The notes beneath the pieces are model-generated. The model saw only the letters and a program-made list of their open reading frames with translations. It had not been told where the DNA came from and did not search any database. DNA of 64,000 bases from an uncultured Verrucomicrobiota bacterium (GTDB lineage Bacteria > Verrucomicrobiota > Kiritimatiellia > RFP12 > UBA1067), in NCBI GenBank assembly GCA_945834475.1, contig CAMAHK010000001.1:18175-82174 (forward strand), written 5' to 3'. Below are positions 1 through 37,065 of this stretch, one piece after another; position 1 is the first letter of the stretch; every line of letters starts with the position of its first letter. The translations under genes and the position numbers were made by a program.

Positions 1-3000
1 AACGCGCTGACGGAAGGCGCGGCCGACACGTCGTTCACGCCGATGCCGCTTGAGATCACGGTTGACAACGTGCCGGCGAAGGTCGCCGAGGCGTATGTCG
101 GCGACAGCTGGGACGAGGCGAAGGACGATCCGGCGTGGAACACCGCGGCGCCGATCGAGATTCCGTGCGGCGTGACGGTGCCGCTCTACCTCGTGCTGGA
201 AGATCCGAGCGCGGAAGACTTCAAGTCGAACGTCGTCACGGTCATCCGCTGGACGACGGACGACGCCAAGAAGCAGTGGACGAAGTCGCCGATCATCACG
301 AACCTGACGGAGCAGGTCGCGGAGCTCCGCTTCACCGAGTCGATGTTCCCGAACCCGAACCGCGAGCACAACGTCCAGATCATCACGGTTGACAAGGACG
401 AGATGGCGGCGCTCGCGTCGCCGATCACCGAGGCCGAGTGGAAGAGCGGCCTCTTCCGCCTCAAGCTCAAGAATCCGCAGACGTTCAACTTCCGTCTGAA
501 GGTCCTGACGAAGCCGCACATCAGCGTCGAGCAGGTGGGCTTCAAGACGGGCAAGTACGGTCCGCTCATGGACGAGACGGGCAACGACGGCCAGACGGGT
601 CTCAAGATCGCGATCGACGAACCGGCCGACCGTGACCTCGTCGTGCGCGTCATGCTGAAGCCGAGCGCCGAGGCGAACCGCGGCGTCCTCGAGTTCGCGA
701 CGCCGACGTTCACGAACGCCGACCACAGCGTCTACACCGACATCATCATCCCGAACGGCACGATGACGCCGGCGGAATCGGCGACCTACAAGTCGACGAC
801 GGGTCTCCTCTTCAACTACAAGACGATCGACGGCACGGACATCAGCTACAACGACGGCTGGGAGATCAGCGCCACGATCACGAACGAGATCCAGAAGGCC
901 GGGCAGGAGGCGGGCAAGCCGTACTTCTCCGACTACTCGGGCCAGTGGGTCTACGTGCAGAACCTGCCGCCGGTCGTCTTCCCCGAAGAGCCGACGGTGC
1001 TGACGACGAACCGCACGCAGTCGATCGGCGTGCCGTTCACCGTCGAATGGTGGGCGACTGACGTCAAGAGCGATCTCGAGTACGTTTGGGCAAACGGCAA
1101 GAAGGGCCTGATCGCCGAGTGGTACATGGGCGAAGACGGCGACATGTCGATGCCGTCGATGGCGACGAACGTGACGAAGTCGGGCGAGCACATCAAGACG
1201 ACGGTCACGCTCGCGAACGAAGGTCTCACGACCCTGCGTCTCGTCGTCCGCGACAAGGACGGCTCGGGCGAAGTCGGCACGGTCGGCGAGCGTCGCTGGC
1301 TCTTCTACATCTCGCCGTCGAAGAAGCTGATCGCCACGCCGGCCGGTCCCGGCAACGCGCGCACGAAGTACAAGACGTATCGCGGCCTCGGCGAAGGCCG
1401 CGTGTGGGCGGACGGCGGCAATGTGTCGGTGACGGGCTTCGCGCAGAAGTGGAGCTACAGCATCAAGACGGCTCAGGGCCGCGTCTATGCGTACGGCTAT
1501 CCGCATGCGTCGGCGCCTTACGCCGATAACGGGTCGCTCCAGCCGCATGACGTCGCGCTCAATGAGAACGGCGACAGCTGGACGTCGGGTGCCTACTATC
1601 ACTACGGCCAGGAGATGTCGGGCTATCTCTACGATAACTACTTCTACTGCTGGGCCTTCGTCATTCCGAGCGACCAAGGCGGGGCGCCGACGGTCGAACT
1701 GGACATCGTCAACCCCGACATGAAGCCGGTTGCGAACGCGAACACGGGGGTTGTCCTCGCCGAGTACGAGGAGAACAAGGAAGACTACCTCGAAAGCGAA
1801 GTCGAAGCGGTCTTCGCGCGCGAACTCTACACGCACGACAACATGGGCGACATCAACGCCGACCGCGTGCCGGACCTCTATCTGCGCACGTATCCGGGTC
1901 TGGGTATCGTCGACGAAGACGGCAACCGCACGGGTGACGAGCGCACGAGCGTGGCGGGCGGCAATCCCGACGGCGACATGCTTCCGGGCGATCTCAGTTC
2001 GCCGATGGGCAATTTCATTCCGGGTCTTTCCAACAACTGGACGCGTGCGTTCCAGACGGTCACCGAAATCCGCGGCGTCGGCGAGGCGTTCAACAATGGT
2101 CCCTCGATCCGCGGGCCGAAGGGCGTTGTCTGCGACATCCGCTACACCGATCCGCAGGTCGACACGAACTCGACGCTGACGGCACTTGAATACATCGCCT
2201 TCACGAACTTCTGCGGCCGCACGGCGGTTGACGAGGACGACTATGTCGCGAAGACGAATGTGGCGGGCTGGGCGGCCTGGTCGCCGGAGAACCCGACGGA
2301 TCCGACGATGGACGACAGCGACGAGGACGGTCTTCCCGACGGCTACGAATACTACTACTGGTACCGCGCACATGTCGGCATGATCAAATACAATGCCGAC
2401 GGCACGCCCGATCCGGCGAGCTACACGCGCCTGACGGGTCGCAAGTATGTTCCGGCGGATCCGTGCAATCCCGAGATCATCACGCCCGAGGCGATCGAGC
2501 AGATCTGCAACCCGAACGTGCCGCTCGCGGGCTTCCGCGTTGATCAGGATACGGATAACGACGGCATTCCCGATCTTGACGAACTTGTCGCGGGCACAAA
2601 TCCGTTCGACTACGATACCGACGGCGACGGACTGCCCGACGGCTACGAACTCGCGATCTCGAAGACGAATCCGCTCGTCGCCGACCGCGGCTCGAACGTT
2701 GACGGCGATCAGATGGCGCTCATCACGCTCGAGAACGTCATTCCGGTCACGTGCGTCTATAAGGAAGACGATAACACGGTCACGAACATGCTGTGGTCGC
2801 TCGAGGGCGTCGATGTCGCGGAGAATGAAGATGACGACACGATCACGAACCTGACGACGAAGACCTCGCTCTTCACGGCCTATACCTACGACATCGACAA
2901 CGAGGGCAAGCCGGTTTGGGTGCTGGGTCGTCTTGTTCTGGACGCGAAGGACGCGAAGTACGACGACAAGATCAAGGAGTACAACGTCATTCATGTCGGC

Positions 3001-6000
3001 GAAGGCCGGTCGATGCGCGCGATCCACTTCCAGGTCTTTGCGATCAAGGGCTTCGATCCGCGCGTGGCGTGGAACACCGAAGCGGCCGTCATGGTGCCGA
3101 TCGCGCACCGCGTCGACACGACTGGGTTCACGGCCTATGACGAGTTCATGACGATGACGTTCTTCCTGAACGTCGGGGCGATCGAAGAGGCCGATGTCAC
3201 GCCGAAGCCGAATCGCACGCTCGTCAACATCTGGACGGACTGCACGCCCAATCCGCTCAACGCCGATACCGACGGCGATGGCGTGCCGGATGGTTGGGAA
3301 CTCTATGTGATGGGTCAGGGCGGTTTCGTGTGCAACAACCCGATGCCGCCGGCGGGCAACAGTCACGACAACCATTCGCCGATGATCAACTGGACGGGTC
3401 ATGACGACGTGATCGGCGGCCTCAACTACGTCGAGGAGTTCTGCGGCATCGAGAGCTGCGCGCGCTACGAAAACTGCGAGACGATCGTCAACGTCCAGCC
3501 CGAGTGGAAGAACAAGTACTGGCCGACGAATCCGTTCAATAAAGATACCGACGGCGACGGTGTCACCGACTCGGGTGAAAAGACGTTCATCTACGGCGAC
3601 GCGCCGGCCTCGACGGTCTACTCGGGTGCGATCCCGGGCGGCGGCCTCAACCCGAATTCCTGGGATACCGATCTTGACGGCCTGCCCGACGGCTGGGAAC
3701 TTCAGTTCGCCTGCTCGATCCTAGTGAGCTCGACGACGACGACCGTCGAGACGCACTCCGACACGAACGGCACGTCGACGGTCACGAATACGGTGACGAC
3801 GGCGGGCGGTCCGCAGGCGGACGGCATGGACGGCACGGTCAAGGACCAGATGAAGGACTACGACCACGACGGCCTCAACAACTGGCAGGAATACATGGTC
3901 GGCGCGATGCGCTGCTGGCGTTACGACGACGTGACGACGCCGTGGACGTCGACGATGCTGACGGTCGCGGATCTTGAGGCGATGTCGGGCGAAGACTTCT
4001 ACCAGATGCTCATCGACCCGTGGGTCGATCTCGACGATCCGGAGGCGACGCCGCTCACGTACGCGAAGTACAATCCGTTCCTCGGCACGGGCGTCGTGAG
4101 CCCCTACGTCTACTTCAGCTGCTGCAACAACGCGTTCGATCTCGCGGCGGGTCGTCTCTACATGTTCAAGGACGGCATCTACCACGACCTCACGAACGAC
4201 AAGCGCGACGGCGAGAACCGCTGGTCGGCGAAGATCATGAAGTTCCGTCCGACGGGCATGGGCTTCATGACACACGACACGCTGGGCCGTCCGGCGGCGC
4301 CGCGCAAGTACATCTCGTGCGACCCGACGAACGCGGATACCGACGGCGACGGCATGGACGACTACTACGAGCTCTACCACGGCATCAACCCGCTGCTGGG
4401 CCGTGCCAACGGCAAGGGCGACTCGGGGCTCGTGGACGTGGTCGCGCGCGCCTACTACGACAAGGACGAGCTGCCGTTCCCGGTGAACGCGACGGACAAC
4501 TTCTGGTTCAACGCGGTCGCGGTCAACACCGGCACGACGTCCGCCGAGGCCCAGCTCAAGGACGAGGACCAGTCGATGTACGACTTCGTCCAGTTCCCGT
4601 GGCTGAACGGCCTGCCCGAGGCCGATCCCGACGGCGACAACATCCGCAACGCGCAGGAGTCGATCCTGCCGATCGCGCAGGCGGCCGCGACGTATCAGCA
4701 CATCGACCCGTCGCCGCTGTGGATGACCGACACGAGCTACACGAACTCGCTCGTCTCGCGGTTCTACTATCCGACGCTGGCCATCTCGAGCTTCAATCAC
4801 AGCGGCTCGTTCATGCACACGGATGCCGACGGCAACACGACGACATACAACTTCAGCGAGATCCCGGGCTTCAAGTTCGAGGAAGGCCTGGTCACGGTCA
4901 CGGCGAGCCGGAATCCGTTCAAGACGTTCGGTACGGCGTTTGCCTACGAGGAGAACGAAGGTTACGATACCGACCACGACTACCTGAGCGATTTCGAGGA
5001 ATCGCAGGGTAAGACGAAGAGTGCGTCGGATCCGCAGATGAGCGACGATCCAATCCGCCATCAGGCGATGTACTTCAACGGCGAGGACGCCTTCCTCCAG
5101 ACGCAGCTTCCGGAGGAGTGGATCCTGCCGAACGAAGAATCGGTTGCGGAGTTCCGTCAGAACTTCCTCTACTTCACGGTCGAAGCGTGGGTGAAGGCGG
5201 ATGCGTCGCTCGTTGGCGAGGCTGCCAAGCCCGGCCTCTTCACGGTCATCGAGCGTCCGATCTGGACGGGCGCGTCGAACGCGGGTGACGAAAGCTTCCT
5301 GCGCAAGAACTTCCTCATCGGCATCAAGAACGGCCGTTGGTACGCGAAGTTCGACTCGACGGGCACGGATCTCAACCAGCCGATCGAGATCAAGGAAGGT
5401 CCCGAGGCCACGGCGGCGTGGACGCATGTCGCGGCGACATTCGGTCCTGCGGACGAAGCCGACACGGAAGGCACGGGTCCGATGGCCCTCAAGCTTTACG
5501 TCGACGGCATTCTGCGCAAGTCGCTCCGTAGCGGCGTTCAGCCCGAACATGGCGTGCAGGCGTTCAACCTGACGCCGAAGTCGAAGATCGTGACGGTCTA
5601 CGAGTGGGAGGAGAACCCGCTCGCGCGTCCGATGGTCTCCATGATCGTCGGTGCGTCGGCGAAGACCATGCGCGGCATCGTGTTCGACCAGAACTGGGGT
5701 TCGGTCGACACGCCCGACATGACGACGGTCGCCGACTACGCGAACTTCTTCAAGGGCCACGTCGACGAAGTCCGCATCTGGGACGGTGCGCGCAGCGCGG
5801 CGGCGATCAAGGCCGACGTCGAGCAGAAGACGCGCTATACGACGGCGCTTGCGCTTGAGAATCGTCGGGCGGTTTACGCGAAGTGGAGCCAGGACATTAC
5901 GCGCATGCCGAATGCTAGCGGCGAGATGCTCCCGCCAGAGCTGATGTATCACTTCTCGTTCGATCATATCCCGGGCGCGGTCGAGGCCAAGGACGTCCTC

Positions 6001-25658: not shown

Positions 25659-28600
25659 ATGACCCAAACACAGATCAGATCTGTCATCCGGAGGGGGCTC
25701 TTGAGCTCCCTCTGTTTGATTATGCCCCTTGTTGTGCAAGCAACGGGTATCAATGTTAACCTGAGCGAAACCGAACGGGCCAAGGGCAGCATTTCCCCGG
25801 CTGGCAAAACCTTCGACATCCAGACCGGGACGATGACGTTCACGGCCATTCCGAAGACGGGGTACGAGCTGGTGGGCTGGGGTGTGTCGATCGGGGAGAG
25901 CGCGGTCACAATCAATCCCGCGAATCCAAATGAACTGACGGTGACGGCATCGGCGTCGGTTCTGGTCGTGCAGATGCAGCCGACCTTCAGGGCCTCGACG
26001 TACACGCTCCGCTTCGATGCGAACGGCGGCCAGACGCCGAATGCGTCGCAAAAGGTGACGTACGGCACGGAGCTGGCGGCTTTGCCCGTGCCGACGCGGG
26101 AGGGACACACCTTTAACGGCTGGTTCGTCGGAACGCGGCAGATTCTCGCGGGCGAGACGGTAACATTCACCGCGAATGTCACGGCCACAGCGAACTGGAC
26201 GGTCAACAAGTACGCCTTCAAGCTGACGATTACCAAGGGTATCAAGGGCGTTTACTACAAGCTTGGTGAAGAGACCACGCGCTACAATTCGAGTTCGGTT
26301 TCCGAGTCGGTCGCCTATGGCACAAGTTACAGTTGGTATGCTGAGCCGGCGACGGGCTATACGACGACCTACACGCTTGAGAATCCGAAAACCGGAACGA
26401 TCGGCGCACAGGAAACGGCCTTTACCGTGGGAGCCGTGGCTCAGAAGATGACGGTTTATTTCGATCCTGGAACGGGTGGGACGACACCCGTCGCCTCTAA
26501 GTCGGTGACATACGATCAGCCCTATGGTGAGCTGCCGATTCCCGAAAAGGACGGTTCTCATTTCGAAGGCTGGGAAACGCCGTCGAGAGACCGTATCGAT
26601 GCGACGACGATCGTCCGGCTGACGGCCGATACGACGCTGACGGCGCGGTGGAGCGCGGAAAAGGTTCAGGTCGTGTCCAGCGCGACGAATGGACGCGTCA
26701 GCGTCTCGCCGACGACAGTCGAATTCGGGAAGCCGGTCGAGATCCAATGGTGGCCGAATTCTGAAAGCGGCTACGACTATGCTTTCGCCCAGGCCAAGGT
26801 TTATGCCGGAAGCGACGCGACCGGCATTTGCTTGGAGACATATACGGAAGGCGTTGGCGCACTCTTCACGCTCACCAAGTACTATCCGACAATCGCCGTG
26901 GTGGTCGAGTACACGAAATCGGCGAAGGCGTATAAGGTGACGTTCAACGGCAACGAGGGGACGTCCTCGCAGGAAGATGCGATCGTTCACTACAAGGAAC
27001 CTTTTGGCACACTACCGACGGCCACGCGAACGGGCTATGACTTCGACGGTTGGTCGACTTTGCGTTCGGGCTCGTCGCGCGTCACCGAGACGGATCTCTA
27101 CGAGTGGACGTACGACCGCGAGCTCTATGCACGGTGGATCGCAAAGACGTATGCGATCACGACCGAAACGACGCACTGTCAGCTGGCCGTGACGACGAAC
27201 GGGTTGGAAACGTCCATGGGGGCGTACGACCGTCCGATTCTGATTTCGGCGACCCCCGAGTCGCGCACGGGTTACGACACTCGCCTGACGTCGGTCGTCG
27301 TCTATTCGTCTGCCAGTCCCGGCGCGAGTCCGATCAAGAACATCTCCTCCCCGGAGAACTTCATCATGAGCGGCCTGCAGGCCTATTACGAGGGCATCGT
27401 GATCCGCGCGATTGCGACGCAGACGGCCTGCACATACACACTGTCGTTCGATCTGAACGGCGGAATGGGATCGGCCGAAAATCGCAACGTCACCTACGAC
27501 GGGATGTACGGTGACTTGCCGATAGTGACGCGCACAGGATACGATTTTGTCTCTTGGCAACTGTCGGACGGTACGGTCGTAACGCCCGAGGACACGGTAA
27601 AGATTACGGCGAACGCCAAGCTGACGGCACAGTGGCAGGCGAAGACCTTTAACGTTTCGTTCGATCCGCAAACGAAGGACGTCGAGACACCGTCGGCCAT
27701 CGCGGTCACCTACGATGCGACGTACGGGACATTGCCGACGTTGATCCGTACGGGTTATACGTTCAATGGTTGGTACGATGCGAAGACGGAAATCACCGCA
27801 GAGACGACGGTGAAGATTACGTCCGACCAGACGCTGACGGCAAAATGGACGGCGAACCGCTACACGATCCTCTTTAATGCGAACGGCGGTTCAGGCACGA
27901 TGACGAGCGTGGCTGATTGCGCGTATGATGAGCCGGTCAAACTGCCGCTCTGTGCTTTCCGACACAAGACACATACGTTCATCGGATGGGCGACAGACCC
28001 CCTAGCAGAAACGCCAGACTATGCTGATGGTGCGAGTGTTTATGGATTGACGGACGAAAGTGAAATATCGCTCTATGCTGTTTGGTTGGATACGCGCAAC
28101 GAGTTGTCCAAGGCCGCACATTGCGTTAACTGCACCGTTGAGGGTACGGGTAACATACCTTTTGTTCCGTGGTATGATCCTGTGTCGGGTCAGACGGCTG
28201 CGCAAAGCGGGTATCGGGATCTGCCGTTCGTTTCGCAGGAGGTTAGTAGTAGCTGGATGCGTTTAAATCTTGTTGGCCCTGGAACGTTCTCGTTTAAGTG
28301 GCGTGTTGGTGAGGGTGATCCAATTTGTAAGATATCGCTTTACATAGACACGAAGTACATGGGCACGAAAGAAGAGTATCCGGCAGAGAATTGGGATGAA
28401 AACTTTAATGTTGTTCAGGAAGGACTTTGGTTCCGTGTAACTTGCAAACTTTCAGAGTCTCGTTCCTATGCGGTAGATTTTGAATCTTTTGCGCGTAAAG
28501 AACAGGGCCATGGCTACATCCTCGTCGACGAGTTGACCTGGACGCCGAACGGAACGAACCCCGCGCCGACGGAGGCGGATCGGCCGGTGATTGGGGCGGG

Positions 28601-28817
28601 GTTTTCGTTTATGACGGATGCGCGGTTTGACTATGTCATTTGGACGACGGAATCGCTGGTGTCGCCGATCGAGTGGAAGCCTGGCGAGCCGATTCATGGA
28701 ACAGGCGAGGCGGTGAAGCTGCCGGGGTTGCTGGGAGTCGCCGCAGGCGGGGACGCACTGCGGTACGGGGATGTGCCGCAGCGGTTCTACAAGGTCGAAG
28801 TCCGTCAGCGGAAATGA
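25659..28817 (+). CDS. Listeria-Bacteroides repeat (Flg_new / InlB B-repeat) surface protein with shared C-terminal module
   Basis: Six repeats of the pattern Y(T/K)(L/V)xF(D/N)xNGG....V.Y....G.LP...R.GY.F.GW......T....I..D..L.A.W. Signal peptide present. Ends ..YVIWTTESLVSPIEW..RFYKVEVRQRK. Starts 11 nt after the secretin stop. Confidence 0.85.
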   Translation: MTQTQIRSVIRRGLLSSLCLIMPLVVQATGINVNLSETERAKGSISPAGKTFDIQTGTMTFTAIPKTGYELVGWGVSIGESAVTINPANPNELTVTASASVLVVQMQPTFRASTYTLRFDANGGQTPNASQKVTYGTELAALPVPTREGHTFNGWFVGTRQILAGETVTFTANVTATANWTVNKYAFKLTITKGIKGVYYKLGEETTRYNSSSVSESVAYGTSYSWYAEPATGYTTTYTLENPKTGTIGAQETAFTVGAVAQKMTVYFDPGTGGTTPVASKSVTYDQPYGELPIPEKDGSHFEGWETPSRDRIDATTIVRLTADTTLTARWSAEKVQVVSSATNGRVSVSPTTVEFGKPVEIQWWPNSESGYDYAFAQAKVYAGSDATGICLETYTEGVGALFTLTKYYPTIAVVVEYTKSAKAYKVTFNGNEGTSSQEDAIVHYKEPFGTLPTATRTGYDFDGWSTLRSGSSRVTETDLYEWTYDRELYARWIAKTYAITTETTHCQLAVTTNGLETSMGAYDRPILISATPESRTGYDTRLTSVVVYSSASPGASPIKNISSPENFIMSGLQAYYEGIVIRAIATQTACTYTLSFDLNGGMGSAENRNVTYDGMYGDLPIVTRTGYDFVSWQLSDGTVVTPEDTVKITANAKLTAQWQAKTFNVSFDPQTKDVETPSAIAVTYDATYGTLPTLIRTGYTFNGWYDAKTEITAETTVKITSDQTLTAKWTANRYTILFNANGGSGTMTSVADCAYDEPVKLPLCAFRHKTHTFIGWATDPLAETPDYADGASVYGLTDESEISLYAVWLDTRNELSKAAHCVNCTVEGTGNIPFVPWYDPVSGQTAAQSGYRDLPFVSQEVSSSWMRLNLVGPGTFSFKWRVGEGDPICKISLYIDTKYMGTKEEYPAENWDENFNVVQEGLWFRVTCKLSESRSYAVDFESFARKEQGHGYILVDELTWTPNGTNPAPTEADRPVIGAGFSFMTDARFDYVIWTTESLVSPIEWKPGEPIHGTGEAVKLPGLLGVAAGGDALRYGDVPQRFYKVEVRQRK

Positions 28818-28864
28818 TCTGGCCTCAAGCCCGATTGTAGGCCATATTAATCTTGTGCGATGTC

Positions 28865-28895
28865 GCGAACTGATGTATCTGATACATTAGTTCGC
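28865..28895. repeat. Hairpin H1 GCGAACTGATGTATC-T-GATACATTAGTTCGC
   Basis: 15-bp stem with one G.T pair, read directly. Lies 48 nt after the stop of the repeat-protein gene. Confidence 0.9.
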
Positions 28896-29195
28896 GCAAC
28901 CTCCCAGCCCCGATTCTTGATTCGACATTGACTTTGTGGGCGCAAGTTTGGTACAATCCAAGCATACCTAATGACAGTCAGGGCCGTTCGAGAGGAGACT
29001 GTGGAAGCGAAACGCCATCATCGGGGCGAGTGCCTCGGGTAATGGTAGCCTGAAAGGGAGCCGTGGCAGGGGTGGGCCTAAAACCGGGGGGTGACTTCTG
29101 GGGTTACTGCCAGCAGGGCGCGATTGATGAGAGCAAGCGCGTTCCCGGTGCGGGAGACCGCATTGAGCGATGAAAACGTCGCTCCAATGACAAGG
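28896..29195 (+). other. Non-coding, stem-loop-rich segment bounded by H1 and H2 (candidate structured RNA or 5' leader of the RAYT-like gene)
   Basis: No + strand ORF of 60 aa or more, and stops occur in all + frames. Local stems read by eye: CAGTC..GACTG (~28978-29004), TGGCAG..CTGCCA (~29059-29110), TGCGG-GAGA-CCGCA (~29150-29163), GAGCGA-TGAAAACG-TCGCTC (~29165-29184). I could not assign it to a known RNA family. Confidence 0.3.
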
Positions 29196-29226
29196 GTGAA
29201 CTAATGTATTTGATACATCAGTTCGG
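29196..29226. repeat. Hairpin H2 (inverted orientation relative to H1)
   Basis: GTGAACTAATGTATTTGATACATCAGTTCGG equals the reverse complement of H1 with 4 mismatches in 31. It ends 15 nt before the RAYT-like ATG. Confidence 0.85.
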
Positions 29227-29241
29227 TAATTGGAGCGCATC

Positions 29242-30336
29242 ATGGCTGACTGCATTCTGTTGGATCCGACGACAAGCCACAACCGTCATCAAGATCACGA
29301 CAACGTCTATCATCTCTACAACCGTATTGCACATTCGGTTCGTTTCCTCAATGACGAAGAGAAGGACGATCTTATGGACCGCGTACGGCGAATCTCCGAG
29401 TTCTGCGGCATCAAGCTCTTGAGCTGGTGCTTGATGACGAATCATTTCCACCTGCTTGTCTATTTGCCTTATCCGCAGAAGCTGACGCGTGAAGAGATTG
29501 GGCGGCGGCTTGGCCTTTTGCGACCCGAGGAGAGGGCGGTCTTCGTCGACGGATTTATTTTGGATCGTGCGCCTCGAGAGGTGACGAAGCGCCTGTACCA
29601 CATAGGCATGTTCATGAAGATTGTCAAAGAGAACTTCACGATCGCCTATAATGCGCGAACCGGGCATAGCGGCACCATGTGGGCGGGGCCGTACTGCTTC
29701 AAGAAGGTTGCGATGTCCGTAGGGAACCTCAGCCGCTCGGCCGCGTATCAGAATCTCAATCCGGTGCGCGCGTGCATGACCGCAGATTACGAGAGCTATC
29801 CCTGGACATCTTTTGCGGCCGCGACGAAAGGGGATCGGGTGGCATTGGACGGCATAAACTTCGTCTTCGGAGGCTACGAAACGCGAACTGATGTATCTGA
29901 TACAATAGTTCGCCCGCCAAACGAGGAACTAATTTCTTGGATGCGAAAGAAGATGGATGTCGAGCTTGAGGAATGTCAGCGAGAACGAGCGGAGGCGGTG
30001 TGGCGGAAGCGCTTGGCGGGTGAGCAGGGCGCAGAGATCGATCCGCTGACGTCTGAGGCAATGGTCGCGCAGGTTGAAGCGCGGATGGCAAAACTGCGGA
30101 CAGAGGACTTCCATGTTGAACTAGCGAAGATTCTCGGGCGAGCAGCGGAAGAAGACGAGGTGAAGATCATTCGCGCGATGGCGGCGGAGCCGGAGGCAAA
30201 TACCGATGAGCTGGCGAAGATCTCGGGTGCCTCGGTGAGTCGTGTCAAGCGTATCAGCGTGATCTTACAGAAGTTCGGTGTTATCAGAAGGGAAGGAACC
30301 AAACGTCGAAGTTTCTGGAAGATCGACCTGTTTTGA
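29242..30336 (+). CDS. REP-associated tyrosine transposase (RAYT) / IS200-like Y1 HUH protein with C-terminal coiled-coil + winged-HTH
   Basis: HUH motif LSWCLMTNHFHLLVY. Catalytic Tyr region SAAYQNLNPVRACM. C-terminal HTH TDELAKISGASVSRVKRISVILQKFGVIRREGTKRRSFWKI. I prefer the ATG at 29242 over the TTG at 29230. Hairpin H3 lies inside the reading frame. Confidence 0.75.
   Translation: MADCILLDPTTSHNRHQDHDNVYHLYNRIAHSVRFLNDEEKDDLMDRVRRISEFCGIKLLSWCLMTNHFHLLVYLPYPQKLTREEIGRRLGLLRPEERAVFVDGFILDRAPREVTKRLYHIGMFMKIVKENFTIAYNARTGHSGTMWAGPYCFKKVAMSVGNLSRSAAYQNLNPVRACMTADYESYPWTSFAAATKGDRVALDGINFVFGGYETRTDVSDTIVRPPNEELISWMRKKMDVELEECQRERAEAVWRKRLAGEQGAEIDPLTSEAMVAQVEARMAKLRTEDFHVELAKILGRAAEEDEVKIIRAMAAEPEANTDELAKISGASVSRVKRISVILQKFGVIRREGTKRRSFWKIDLF
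29883..29913. repeat. Hairpin H3 (same orientation as H1), inside the RAYT-like ORF
   Basis: GCGAACTGATGTATCTGATACAATAGTTCGC, with 30/31 identity to H1. It is translated as TRTDVSDTIVRP, at the junction between the Y1 domain and the C-terminal region. Confidence 0.9.
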
Positions 30337-30362
30337 AAGACCTGCAGTGCAGCATGTGCAAT

Positions 30363-30392
30363 GCGAACTGATGTATCAAATACATTAGTTCG
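30363..30392. repeat. Hairpin H4 (same orientation as H1)
   Basis: GCGAACTGATGTATCAAATACATTAGTTCG. Lies 27 nt after the RAYT-like stop and 10 nt before the duplicated gene 3' end. Confidence 0.9.
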
Positions 30393-30402
30393 TCTCTGAA
30401 GC

Positions 30403-30669
30403 GAGGCGGATCGGCCGGTGATCGGAGCAGGGTTCTCGTTCATGACGGCTGCGTATGTCATCTGGACGGCCGAGTCGCTGGAGAATGGGGGCGTGTGGAC
30501 GCCGGGTGAGACGATTCGGGGGACTGGCGAGGCGGTGAAATTGCCGGGGTGGCTGGGAATCGCCGCAGGTGGGGACGCACGGCCTTCGGCTGCGTCGGCC
30601 TGACGGCCTCGGCTCGGGCGGTACGGGGATGCGCCGCAGCGGTTCTACAAGGTCGAAGTCCGTCAGCGG
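30403..30669 (+). pseudogene. Decayed second copy of the C-terminal module of the Listeria-Bacteroides-repeat gene
   Basis: 30403-30669 aligns by eye with 28572-28811 (GAGGCGGATCGGCCGGTGAT.. to ..TTCTACAAGGTCGAAGTCCGTCAGCGG). A 38-nt insertion at 30581-30618 replaces 2 nt and introduces an in-frame TGA. There is no upstream gene body. Confidence 0.75.
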
Positions 30670-30693
30670 CAGAACTGAAGTTAGATGAGTTGC

Positions 30694-30799
30694 GATTTTG
30701 ACCAAATCCAAGTTATTTGGTTAGATTTGGTCAAAATCATAATTTCAAGATCACGATATTGACCAAATCTCATAATTTTGGTATCATTTGGTCAATATC
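30694..30799 (+). promoter_or_regulatory. Tandem pair of promoter-like modules, each embedded in a 14-15-nt inverted repeat (TTGACCAAAT / ATTTGGTCAA)
   Basis: IR1: GATTTTGACCAAATC 30694-30708 against GATTTGGTCAAAATC 30724-30738. IR2: GATATTGACCAAAT 30755-30768 against ATTTGGTCAATATC 30786-30799. Candidate promoters: TTGACC(30698)-17 nt-TGgTTAGAT and TTGACC(30759)-17 nt-TGgTATCAT(30782-30787). Confidence 0.45.
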
Positions 30800-31048
30800 G
30801 TGAATGGAGAATCGCATGGTTGGCCGTATTGTCGAGAGAAATCGCCTTCTCCACGACCGCTTACGAAATCAATGCCGAGGAAGACCTTCGCGCACGTGAG
30901 CGGCGAGAGCTATTCAAGCGATTGACGGGAACGCGAAAAGCCGTTCATCTGACGTATGTCACGACCTATGGCCTCAAAGCGAATAGCCATGCGGGTCTCG
31001 TTCAATCTCAGGTAGTTCTCGAAGACCTGTTCAATGTTATCAAGTGAA

Positions 31049-31597
31049 ATGAAACGAATTGCTCTAACCGGAGGCATCGCGTGCGGCAAGTCGCTTGTCG
31101 CGCGATACCTGAACGAACTCGGCGTCGAGACGATTGACGCCGATGACATCGTCCACGAGATCATTCCCGATCCCGCCGAGCGCAAGCGCATCGCCGCCGA
31201 GGTCTTCGTCGATCCCGAAAAGCGCAAAGAGCTGGAAGCGCGACTCCATCCGATTGTGAGGGAGCGGATCGCGAATTGGTTGGGCGGGGAGCTAGGAGAC
31301 GCCGCGCCCGAGGACGGGCCGCGGTACGGTGTGGCCATCATTCCGCTCTTATTCGAGACACACTGGGACGCGGATTATGATATAATATGTGCCGTTGTCT
31401 CGGCGCGGGAAACACAGATCGCGCGGATGATGACGACGCGCGGGTACTCCCGCGAAGAGGCCGAAGCCCGACTCGCCGCTCAAATGCCCGTCTCGGAGAA
31501 GGCTGAAAAATCCCACTACGTGATCACGAACGACGGAACCGCCGAAGAGCTCAAGCTCAAGGTCGCCGCGTTTGTCGATTGGCTGAAGACCCACTAA
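31049..31597 (+). CDS. coaE: Dephospho-CoA kinase
   Basis: MKRIALTGGIACGKS P-loop at the N-terminus. Also IDADDIVHE, IPLLFE, YVITNDG. Alternative ATG at 31034. Confidence 0.85.
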   Translation: MKRIALTGGIACGKSLVARYLNELGVETIDADDIVHEIIPDPAERKRIAAEVFVDPEKRKELEARLHPIVRERIANWLGGELGDAAPEDGPRYGVAIIPLLFETHWDADYDIICAVVSARETQIARMMTTRGYSREEAEARLAAQMPVSEKAEKSHYVITNDGTAEELKLKVAAFVDWLKTH

Positions 31598-36072: not shown

Positions 36073-37065
36073 ATGTCGCGACGCAACAAGAAGCTCCGGA
36101 AAGCCCTGCTGGTGCCGATCGAGTGGATCGGCATCAGCTTGGCGTTGGCCATCATCACGCCGCTCCCGCGGCGGGCGTTGTTCGGCTTCTGCGATTTTCT
36201 CTCGCGGGTGATGTATCGCTTTGACGGACGCGGCAAGCGGCGGGCGCTTGAGAACTTGCACATCATCCGTGGGACGTGCACGGGTGACGAGGGGACGGTC
36301 AAGTTCGATCCGGACAGCGGTCCGTATCGTCCGACGCGGGCCGAGGAGCTGATCATCCGTCGCTCGTACCGCAATATGGCGCGGTCGGTCGGGTATGCGT
36401 TCTGGACACTCGTCAATGCGAAGGCGCGGTGTCGCCAGACCGGCGAGATGTCGCCCGAAGGCAAGACCTGGCTTGCTGCGAACAAGCCGGCGGTCACGGT
36501 CTCCGGCCACATCGGCTGCTGGGAGATCCTTTCGCAACTCGCGTATCTCGAGGGACACGAGATGATGTCTGTCGCGAAGAACATCGGCACAAGCGGTATG
36601 ACGAAGCTTCTCATGGCCGCGCGTCGGTCGATCGGCCAGGAAATCGTCTCGGCCGACGGCGCGTTCAAGCCGCTCATGGCCGGCATCAAGGCGGGCAAGT
36701 CGCTCGGACTTCTCGTCGACCAGAAAGTCTCGCCCGACAAGGGCGGCATCTGGATCCGCTTCCTCGGCAAGCCCATTCCCGTCTCCGCGGCGCCCGCGTT
36801 CTTCGCGGCAAAGGCGAAGGCCTCGACCATCGTCGCCTGGTCGCATCCGCTCAAGGACGGCCGCTATCGCTGCGAGGAGATCACGACGTATCCGCCGGAG
36901 GCGGCGCGCGACATCTGGCGTTTCACGCAGAATTGCGCACTTGCGCTTGAACGCGTCATTCGTCGTCATCCCTCGTGCTGGGTGCTGAACTACAACTACT
37001 TTCGTCAGAAGCCGACGGAAAAAGACCTGGCGCAGCTCGCCGAACGGGAGGCGGCCAAGGGATGA
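36073..37065 (+). CDS. Lipid A biosynthesis (LpxL/HtrB-type) lysophospholipid acyltransferase family protein
   Basis: H-x4-E acyltransferase motif VSGHIGCWEI. N-terminal TM. GLLVDQ and PVSAAPAFFA blocks typical of the family. Confidence 0.65.
   Translation: MSRRNKKLRKALLVPIEWIGISLALAIITPLPRRALFGFCDFLSRVMYRFDGRGKRRALENLHIIRGTCTGDEGTVKFDPDSGPYRPTRAEELIIRRSYRNMARSVGYAFWTLVNAKARCRQTGEMSPEGKTWLAANKPAVTVSGHIGCWEILSQLAYLEGHEMMSVAKNIGTSGMTKLLMAARRSIGQEIVSADGAFKPLMAGIKAGKSLGLLVDQKVSPDKGGIWIRFLGKPIPVSAAPAFFAAKAKASTIVAWSHPLKDGRYRCEEITTYPPEAARDIWRFTQNCALALERVIRRHPSCWVLNYNYFRQKPTEKDLAQLAEREAAKG

Follow-up and report, generated by a model that had tools for sequence, protein, structure and literature searches.

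A RAYT-like Y1 HUH gene flanked by REP-like hairpins carries one further copy in frame within its inter-domain linker

Introduction

Why would the gene of a putative single-strand DNA nuclease hold, inside its own reading frame, a copy of the hairpin that flanks it? The question is raised by a locus in a 64-kb stretch (hereafter, the window) of contig CAMAHK010000001.1 from an uncultured Verrucomicrobiota bacterium of the class Kiritimatiellia. There, four copies (H1 to H4) of a 31-nucleotide (nt) palindrome accompany a gene encoding a Y1 HUH protein. Repetitive extragenic palindromes (REPs) are by definition extragenic, and the genes of REP-associated tyrosine transposases (RAYTs) are viewed as clean single-copy host genes amid repeats.

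In a REPtron, a tnpA_REP gene is flanked by its own REPs, and hairpin-specific cleavage of single-stranded DNA (ssDNA) by the enzyme has been described (PMC6006769; structure 4er8). The sources on REPtrons and RAYTs are Nunvar 2010, Bertels & Rainey 2011 (PMC3116915), Ton-Hoang 2012, Messing 2012 (PMC3479197; 4er8) and Quentin 2018 (PMC6006769). On balance, and with somewhat more confidence than doubt, we read the locus as REPtron-like, with a RAYT-type enzyme and REP-like hairpins that are translatable in one frame.

Hairpin copies surround and enter the gene

The locus is composed of the following features, given in coordinates of the window.

28865-28895, forward strand: H1, REP-like 31-nt palindrome, exact to the search pattern, arm of 16 with 15 paired
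29196-29226, reverse strand: H2, inverted and more diverged copy, 16-18 nt 5' of the ATG
29242-30336, forward strand: gene for Y1 HUH nuclease, linker, helical region and winged helix, from the open reading frame (ORF) list, 364 amino acids (aa)
29440-29460, forward strand: HUH motif N-H-F-H-L-L-V (H68, H70), invariant in a 23-sequence alignment
29746-29748, forward strand: codon for Tyr169 (AAYQNLNPVRA), the putative catalytic residue, with a W-T-S motif after it
29883-29913, forward strand: H3, in-frame hairpin, translated as RTDVSDTIVR, in the inter-domain linker
30363-30393, forward strand: H4, hairpin, 27 nt 3' of the Y1 stop codon

An original prediction, made from the sequence alone, had placed four palindrome copies at 28865, 29196, 29883 and 30363, and all four stand, with a chance expectation of 0. 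When the palindrome GCGAACTGATGTATC-T-GATACATTAGTTCGC was searched with up to 3 mismatches, H1 matched with 0, H3 with 1 and H4 with 3, and 100 dinucleotide-preserving shuffles gave 0 matches to this pattern. The inverted orientation proposed for H2 is confirmed by a 28-nt inverted repeat with H4 (29198-29225 and 30364-30391), which is 100% complementary. H3 differs from H1 at 1 nt. H1 itself starts 47 nt 3' of the stop codon of an upstream gene for a 1052-aa surface protein. Scanning the 64 kb for palindromes (arm of at least 12, at most 1 mismatch) returned H1, H2 and H4, plus an unrelated site at 36108; H3, with 2 arm mismatches, exceeds the limit of the scan by one.

The protein combines a TnpA_REP-like fold with a winged helix

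The Y1 gene is preceded by GGAG located 8 nt 5' of its ATG. Besides the HUH motif, the 23-sequence alignment shows Y169, L172, N173 and P174 to be invariant. Y169 is followed by a P-W-T-S motif, whose W188 is invariant and whose S190 occurs in at least 90% of the aligned sequences; a serine motif has been described for TnpA_REP-like subclasses (PMC6006769). The invariance of the catalytic HUH and tyrosine residues suggests that the nuclease activity is under selection.

The Pfam family Y1_Tnp matches residues 22-80 at 26.7 bits, just above its cut-off of 23, and weak matches to Pfam winged helix-turn-helix (wHTH) families cover residues 299-356. An AlphaFold model, built on the homologue alignment, reaches a pLDDT of 82 and a pTM of 0.77. 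It displays a Y1 domain (20-211), a coil (212-226) and a helical/wHTH part (227-361) with long helices, of which residues 304-361 form the winged helix. In Foldseek, the top match in the PDB is 4er8_A, the structure of E. coli TnpA_REP in complex with a REP hairpin (TM score 0.76 on the target, E 9e-6), and the TnpA transposases of ISDra2, IS200 and IS608 come next. The C-terminus matches wHTH regulators similar to ArsR and MarR. The assignment of the gene to the RAYT/IS200 type of Y1 HUH genes, which the original prediction had made, is upheld by the Pfam and Foldseek matches. Searching 5.8 billion proteins yielded 39 homologues of the Y1 protein, all of them metagenomic. We regard the gene as a domesticated-looking gene of a single-strand DNA transposase.

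Hairpin and enzyme vary together across lineages

We read the DNA around the Y1 homologues of 12 metagenomic lineages. A cognate palindrome lies 5' of the Y1 ATG in all 12, between 75 nt upstream and overlapping the ATG, and a second one lies 0-28 nt 3' of the stop codon or over it, again in 12 of 12. Further copies are often found near the gene. Flanking of the gene by cognate REP-like hairpins, as expected for the window, is therefore a general feature of these loci, and the case of homologues lacking flanking palindromes did not arise.

The hairpin sequence is uniform within a locus and specific to the lineage. In L008, all five copies have GTAAC..GTTAC arms; all three copies of L007 share a TTTAACA centre; the arms of L047 read CTAATATATC; and L009 and L011 have GGTC-N-GACC centres. 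The hairpins are about 31 nt long, end in GCGAAC/GTTCGC or GCGTAAC/GTTACGC, and carry no GTAG or CGTC tag. Upstream and downstream copies are mutually inverted in the window, L008 and L043, and tandem arrays of 4-5 copies occur in L001, L005 and L047. Conservation extends to one asymmetric position, which reads G·T on one strand and A·C on its complement, and whose orientation follows that of the loop base. Such an asymmetry matters only for a single-stranded hairpin, and so fits an ssDNA hairpin better than a symmetric duplex site; it is indirect evidence that the enzyme acts on its hairpin as ssDNA.

At L047, the DNA 3' of the Y1 gene (1642-1877) also contains three palindromes of a different type, with GGTC-N-GACC or related centres, which resemble the hairpins of a distant Y1 group. 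A perfect 55-nt direct repeat encloses them, its two copies being at 1642-1696 and 1823-1877.

The palindrome persists inside the reading frame

H3 is translated as R-T-D-V-S-D-T-I-V-R at residues 214-224. It falls at the junction between the catalytic and the DNA-binding parts, where the original prediction had located it: in the AlphaFold model, the coil separates the Y1 domain from the helical/wHTH part. Residues 217-221 have a pLDDT below 50. The coil and the low pLDDT suggest that H3 encodes a disordered linker at the domain boundary.

Every one of the 11 lineages with 56-80% identity has an in-frame palindrome, and in eight of them the core begins at nt +644, counted from the ATG. In L007, the core is at +668, and a 24-nt N-terminal extension accounts for the offset, so nine lineages share the alignment position. 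In L008 and L047, the core is at +659, a shift of 3-6 residues inside the linker. In the homologue P0002, the in-frame copy is doubled in tandem at a distance of 42 nt.

We then compared each in-frame copy with its neighbours. In seven of nine loci, it differs by 0-1 nt from a flanking copy of its own locus, and in six of those seven, 3-5 nt separate it from the closest in-frame copy of any other lineage. The peptide varies with the DNA palindrome, reading RTDVSDTIVR in the window, VTNLSDTLVT in L008 and RTNVFNTLVL in L007; a peptide conserved without the palindrome was never seen. Since the in-frame copy usually matches the local flanks better than the in-frame copies of other lineages, these sequence comparisons indicate that it is maintained as a DNA element and changes in step with the neighbouring copies, unlike a decaying neutral relic. 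The original prediction had offered a cis site retained inside the gene as its second explanation, and this fits the persistence of the palindrome in all 11 close lineages and its tracking of the local flanks.

Homologues without an in-frame hairpin reveal the order of events. P0018 (47% identity) has the Y1, coiled-coil and wHTH parts and a linker of the same length, and a group at about 37% identity (P0019-P0033) has the full-length architecture; both lack the hairpin. An exhaustive profile search returned about 15 representative clusters with the full architecture, together with hundreds of Y1 proteins of about 340 aa with other winged-helix C-termini. As the hairpin-less homologues share the two-domain architecture, the two-domain protein predates H3, which arrived in an existing linker. 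Three truncated homologues (P0170, P0172 and P0173), considered as evidence for gene splitting at H3, were dropped, being members of the hairpin-less distant group.

Dispersed copies can be read in the same frame

The hairpin CGA ACT RAT GTA TCW GAT ACA YTA GTT CGN is open in one frame, and this holds in both orientations; the other two frames contain TAA/TGA or TAG stops. The open frame encodes (R/V)-T-(N/D)-(V/L)-S-(D/N)-T-(L/I)-V-(R/T). Having one open frame explains why the in-frame copies keep a constant frame, and the stops in the other frames explain why many copies abut or supply the stop codons of genes, including the copy 3' of the Y1 gene itself. In the L009-type hairpin, none of the three frames is free of stops, and the L009 lineage is without an in-frame copy.

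Among 185,579 species genomes, which do not include the source genome, the exact pattern gave mostly chance matches in AT-rich genomes, and the only relevant one was a solo hairpin in a Kiritimatiellia metagenome-assembled genome from horse faeces. A scan of metagenomes gave 93 stretches, mostly AT-rich chance palindromes, and about 20 high-GC contigs (R11, R14, R19 and R26 co-assemblies) with bona fide hairpins of the family. These hairpins extend to GCGTAACT…AGTTACGC or to (G/C)CGAACT…AGTTCG(C/G). The Y1 gene is on two of the high-GC contigs (L105 and L134), and at least 15 have none in the stretch; their flanks are mostly non-redundant. Solo copies are found, among other places, within unrelated coding sequences and at gene 3' ends. 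Viral contigs gave only AT-rich chance matches to the hairpin pattern and no match to the core of the RNA candidate described below, and a plasmid collection contained no match to the Y1 protein or to the H1-H2 spacer. Contigs ending at hairpins were not used as evidence of multiple copies, because short palindromes may by themselves interrupt a de Bruijn assembly.

Of the solo copies, three fall inside real genes and are read in the same open frame.

In-frame solo copy: GT4 glycosyltransferase, in its inter-domain linker, flanked on either side by Pfam domains
In-frame solo copy: 2626-aa C25-peptidase/LamG protein
In-frame solo copy: loop of a GT2 glycosyltransferase

In the GT2 protein, a homologue of 91% identity reads VEKIGGGG where the hairpin-bearing gene has LARTNVSNTLVHT. 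The hairpin peptide is absent from this homologue, and the loop is replaced, not simply expanded. The homologues of the GT4 protein are at most 58% identical, with a hypervariable linker of similar length.

Palindromes of a related family, (G/C)GACTGATCTATCWGATAGATCAGTC, were noticed singly on a number of large high-GC contigs from a single metagenome (L083, L087, L110, L118 and L137 of Ga0209676), and also in L079. Some of these copies lie inside long ORFs, and one 620-kb contig holds two.

How enzyme and hairpins may act together

On the REPtron-like reading, the Y1 domain would recognise the hairpin on one strand and cut or rejoin ssDNA by analogy with TnpA_REP, and the winged helix may help to locate hairpin sites. 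Hairpins do accumulate around their own gene, that is before its start, at its stop and around neighbouring modules, and occasionally elsewhere at an apparently low copy number. Copies landing in their open frame in a tolerant loop survive as a short hydrophilic insert, and those in other frames supply stop codons at gene ends. H3 is such a copy, placed in the only tolerant site of its own gene, the disordered linker between nuclease and DNA-binding parts. Its homogeneity with the flanks could result from copy replacement driven by the enzyme, from gene conversion or recombination, or from selection of a cis site, for example for autoregulation.

Several observations weigh against this reading. 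The NCBIfam model REP_Tyr_transpos (NF047646) scores 35.6 bits against a cut-off of 80 and covers residues 14-78 only. A position-wise comparison of 45 oriented copies detected no GT[AG]G or other single-stranded foot conserved beyond the palindrome of about 31 nt; classes 2.6 and 3 likewise lack the GT[AG]G foot (PMC6006769). No REPIN doublets were seen, the dispersed copies being singlets and the clustered ones tandem direct repeats 33-50 nt apart. Neither the pattern search nor the palindrome scan detected a copy of the hairpin outside the locus within the window, as the original prediction had stated. Overall, the hairpins appear to be dispersed mostly as singlets, at a number per genome that is apparently low and clearly far below that of classical REPs. 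The variable genomic context of the Y1 gene looks more mobile than that of a vertically inherited RAYT, and the change of neighbouring genes from lineage to lineage argues against strict synteny. Finally, none of the in-frame copies yielded a clean empty site; in the two host genes that were compared with homologues, GT4 and GT2, the peptide from the hairpin occupies a loop that is hypervariable among those homologues.

The strongest rival takes the palindromes as double-stranded operators for a dimeric C-terminal winged helix, which would repress its own gene from sites upstream, within and downstream of it, with the other copies as a small regulon. A winged helix of the MarR/ArsR kind does end the protein, a near-perfect inverted repeat of 13-16 bp suits a dimeric wHTH, there is in every case a copy placed between promoter region and ATG, and the hairpins co-vary with the protein lineage. 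An operator, however, accounts poorly for copies within unrelated coding sequences and at gene 3' ends, or for an invariant HUH motif and tyrosine. The G·T/A·C asymmetry and the polarity of the loop would be meaningless for a symmetric duplex site, and the arrays of 4-5 tandem copies in L001, L005 and L047 are unlike operators. We therefore consider this explanation unlikely as a substitute, while the two readings are compatible, because the wHTH could recruit the enzyme to the hairpins.

Genomic context and the insertion sequence alternative

A second rival regards the hairpin-bounded cassette, made of the Y1 gene and sometimes cargo, as an autonomous mobile element of the IS200 kind whose ends are the hairpins. 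The genomic context invites this idea. The neighbourhood of the Y1 gene differs in every lineage and often adjoins truncated gene fragments, and the ORF is tightly bounded by hairpins, at most 75 nt upstream and at most 28 nt downstream. In the window, the cassette has on either side a copy of the surface-protein gene's final ~245 nt.

28572-28811, forward strand: copy A, duplicated segment of about 245 nt, the intact 3' end of the surface-protein gene, with direct repeats D1, D4 and D5
30403-30669, forward strand: copy B, duplicated segment, a pseudogene fragment that begins 10 nt after H4

Copy B is 71% identical to copy A in nt and 67% in aa (blastn and tblastn), with one 52-nt stretch at 98%, and it contains an in-frame stop and a GC-rich insert of 36 nt (30584-30617). 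We notice that H4 stands in its open hairpin frame with copy B, with a single TGA (30397-30399) between them. In L008, a 148-nt stretch from the 3' end of the upstream GT2 gene recurs at 98% identity (2756-2903 and 5201-5348) on the far side of a hairpin-bounded cassette of 2.3 kb with the Y1 gene and a DUF3800 gene. The duplicated ends of host genes in the window and in L008 suggest a recurrent mode of insertion or recombination. L001 has a truncated GT1 fragment 3' of its cassette. On comparison, this fragment was rejected as a copy of the upstream GT gene, which limits the pattern of duplicated 3' ends to the window and L008.

Modules that resemble cargo also adjoin the gene between hairpins. 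An OmpR-type response regulator, 56% identical between L001 (2304-2906) and L154 (1316-1942) and absent from the window, is hairpin-bounded in both and lies upstream of the Y1 gene in one lineage of this pair and downstream in the other. In L043, a UvrD/Rep-type helicase of 916 aa (2241-4991) follows directly 3' of the Y1 gene, with hairpins at 2185 and at 5026/5075. The DUF3800 gene of L008 is a third case.

Against an autonomous element, the window holds one copy, and contigs with an identical Y1 protein mostly share their neighbourhood, except for one upstream gene (L013) and distal upstream genes (L001-L003). The flanks are the same palindrome inverted, not distinct left and right ends on one strand, and the number of flanking hairpins varies. 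In addition, the NCBIfam model transpos_IS200 scores 14.2 bits against a cut-off of 55. Taken together, an autonomous element is an improbable account of the locus.

Two side observations concern the surroundings. Y1 loci and solo hairpins recur in polysaccharide-synthesis clusters (GT1/GT2/GT4, Wzy_C, acyltransferase, epimerase) or beside giant surface proteins, which are hypervariable parts of genomes (L001, L005, L007, L008, L045, L037, L052, L102 and the window). Downstream of copy B, at 30693-30803 of the window, two nested inverted-repeat units of about 46 nt on TTGACCAAAT overlap promoter-like hexamers. These TTGACCAAAT units sit 5' of a CoaE-like ORF (31034-31597) and are probably an operator/promoter region; Rfam returned only two chance miRNA-like matches for the palindromes at 30694-30801.

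A structured RNA candidate in the spacer

The segment between H1 and H2 had been called non-coding, and indels of 2, 5 and 16 nt in its alignment with homologous loci agree with this. It contains two predicted features.

28928-28957, forward strand: sigma-70-like promoter, TTGACT-18-TACAAT with TG extension, 10 of 12 matches in a consensus scan
28958-29196, forward strand: candidate structured RNA or 5' leader of about 240 nt, filling the H1-H2 spacer

The extended -10 element (TGGTAnAnT) aligns with conserved counterparts in L005 and L043, pointing to a putative promoter function. Behind it, the ~240-nt element is found at 2697-2956 in L005 and at 759-1024 in L043. It has a mean column identity of 87% to L005/L006, compared with 67% aa identity of the adjacent protein. 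RNAalifold gave a multi-helix consensus with 72 pairs, in which 98.1% of cells are paired, and 10 pairs show double-sided (compensatory) changes, compared with 0-3 in slid controls. We therefore propose the conserved element as a candidate structured RNA. Rfam had no match to the spacer RNA or the hairpins (28000-31500, E up to 1), and a covariance model run over 37 sources recovered only the three known lineage copies.

Two candidates were abandoned. The region upstream of the gene in L045 was rejected as a divergent copy of the RNA. A hammerhead-like CUGAUGAG in the spacer was dropped, as the Rfam hammerhead models are unmatched and the motif is in a loop of the consensus fold. In L156 (150-250), 5' of the P0008 Y1 gene, a run of short direct repeats resembling CATGTAATG(T/A)T(C/G) replaces the structured RNA.

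A bolder scheme would have the hairpins serve, instead of as passive parasites, as joints of module shuffling driven by the Y1 enzyme. The modules, cut and rejoined at the hairpins, would be the nuclease domain, the wHTH domain, the structured RNA, the response regulator and the UvrD helicase, together with 3' segments of surface or glycan genes. The in-frame copy would be a working cis site, for autoregulation or for a programmed splitting and rejoining of the enzyme's own gene, and the ~240-nt RNA would be a cofactor or sensor. This would explain the DNA-level maintenance of H3, the switch in position of the response regulator and the duplicated host-gene 3' ends of two lineages. We hold it as a speculation with a small chance of being right.

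By far the least credible, and rejected here, is the first explanation of the original prediction, that the ORF (there counted as 365 aa) is a fusion of separate Y1 and wHTH genes across a REP: H3 does lie exactly at the domain junction, and stops in the other two hairpin frames mean that a frame change could join or split genes, but the hairpin-less homologues are full-length, P0018 with a linker of equal length, and the Y1 plus winged-helix architecture is widespread beyond them.

Relation to known systems

Our reading of the locus as REPtron-like rests on several likenesses. The Y1 HUH fold has TnpA_REP as its best structural match. A single gene is surrounded by several cognate short palindromes, including an inverted pair; enzyme and hairpin co-vary by lineage, and the solo hairpins on other contigs of related lineages suggest extra copies elsewhere in the genome. 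Unlike in REPtrons, the protein of the window has a long helical region and a C-terminal winged helix, and falls well under the NCBIfam cut-off for RAYTs. The hairpins lack the GT[AG]G foot and REPIN doublets, their copy number is low (none elsewhere in the 64 kb), the genomic context of the gene is variable, and one copy is kept in frame inside the gene of the enzyme itself.

The protein also resembles in layout TIRYT, or TnpA_Y1 subclass 2.1, which has a C-terminal HTH (helix-turn-helix) and was reported without REPs (PMC3733652, PMC6006769). Both have a Y1 core, a W-S/T-S motif and then a C-terminal HTH, with a widespread and patchy distribution. In contrast, the flanks of TIRYTs are terminal inverted repeats, GGGG[AT][CG]A[CG], whereas those described here are self-complementary 31-nt hairpins of unrelated sequence. 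The C-termini of subclass 2.1 are DnaA_C, HTH_23 or HTH_28, whereas ours is a winged helix similar to MarR/TrmB. IS200/IS605 elements share the Y1 HUH transposase fold and the hairpins near the ends of the unit. Their end hairpins are distinct, imperfect and on one strand, whereas here the same palindrome is inverted; their transposases have about 130-150 aa and no wHTH, compared with 364 aa and a wHTH; and they are multi-copy, while the window holds one copy of the Y1 gene.

A hairpin in a coding frame is less unusual than the original prediction held. Intragenic REPs of the GTAG/CGTC classes have been described, most abundantly in Opitutus terrae and Rickettsia, as have REPs overlapping the ends of tyrosine-transposase genes (Di Nocera 2013, PMC3733652). 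In-frame miniature inverted-repeat transposable elements as well as Rickettsia palindromic elements (RPEs) have been reviewed (PMC10969869; Ogata 2000 for the latter). As in those cases, palindromes here lie in frame in functional genes and add a short peptide at tolerant positions, and Opitutus terrae belongs to the same PVC superphylum as the present bacterium. The unit here has 31 nt, or about 10 aa, unlike the RPEs of about 100-150 nt, and bears neither the GTAG nor the CGTC tag of the Di Nocera classes. Unlike for intragenic REPs and RPEs, a cognate Y1 gene is identifiable, with a conserved in-frame copy that co-evolves with its flanks. Our literature search found no report of a REP kept in frame within its own RAYT-type gene.

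The practical importance of these findings is modest, as the family is tiny (39 proteins) and the general phenomena are known. The ~240-nt structured RNA candidate is a separate lead. The in-frame palindrome that tracks the local copies offers a natural test of REP homogenisation versus cis use by the enzyme. In comparison with the RPEs of Rickettsia, we have an in-frame palindromic element with an identifiable candidate for the mobilising enzyme, and the HTH-bearing type of Y1 protein, reported earlier without REPs, is now linked to REP-like hairpins. REPtrons and intragenic REPs were already known; what is new here is an HTH-bearing Y1 protein with untagged REP-like hairpins, one copy of which is maintained in its own linker.

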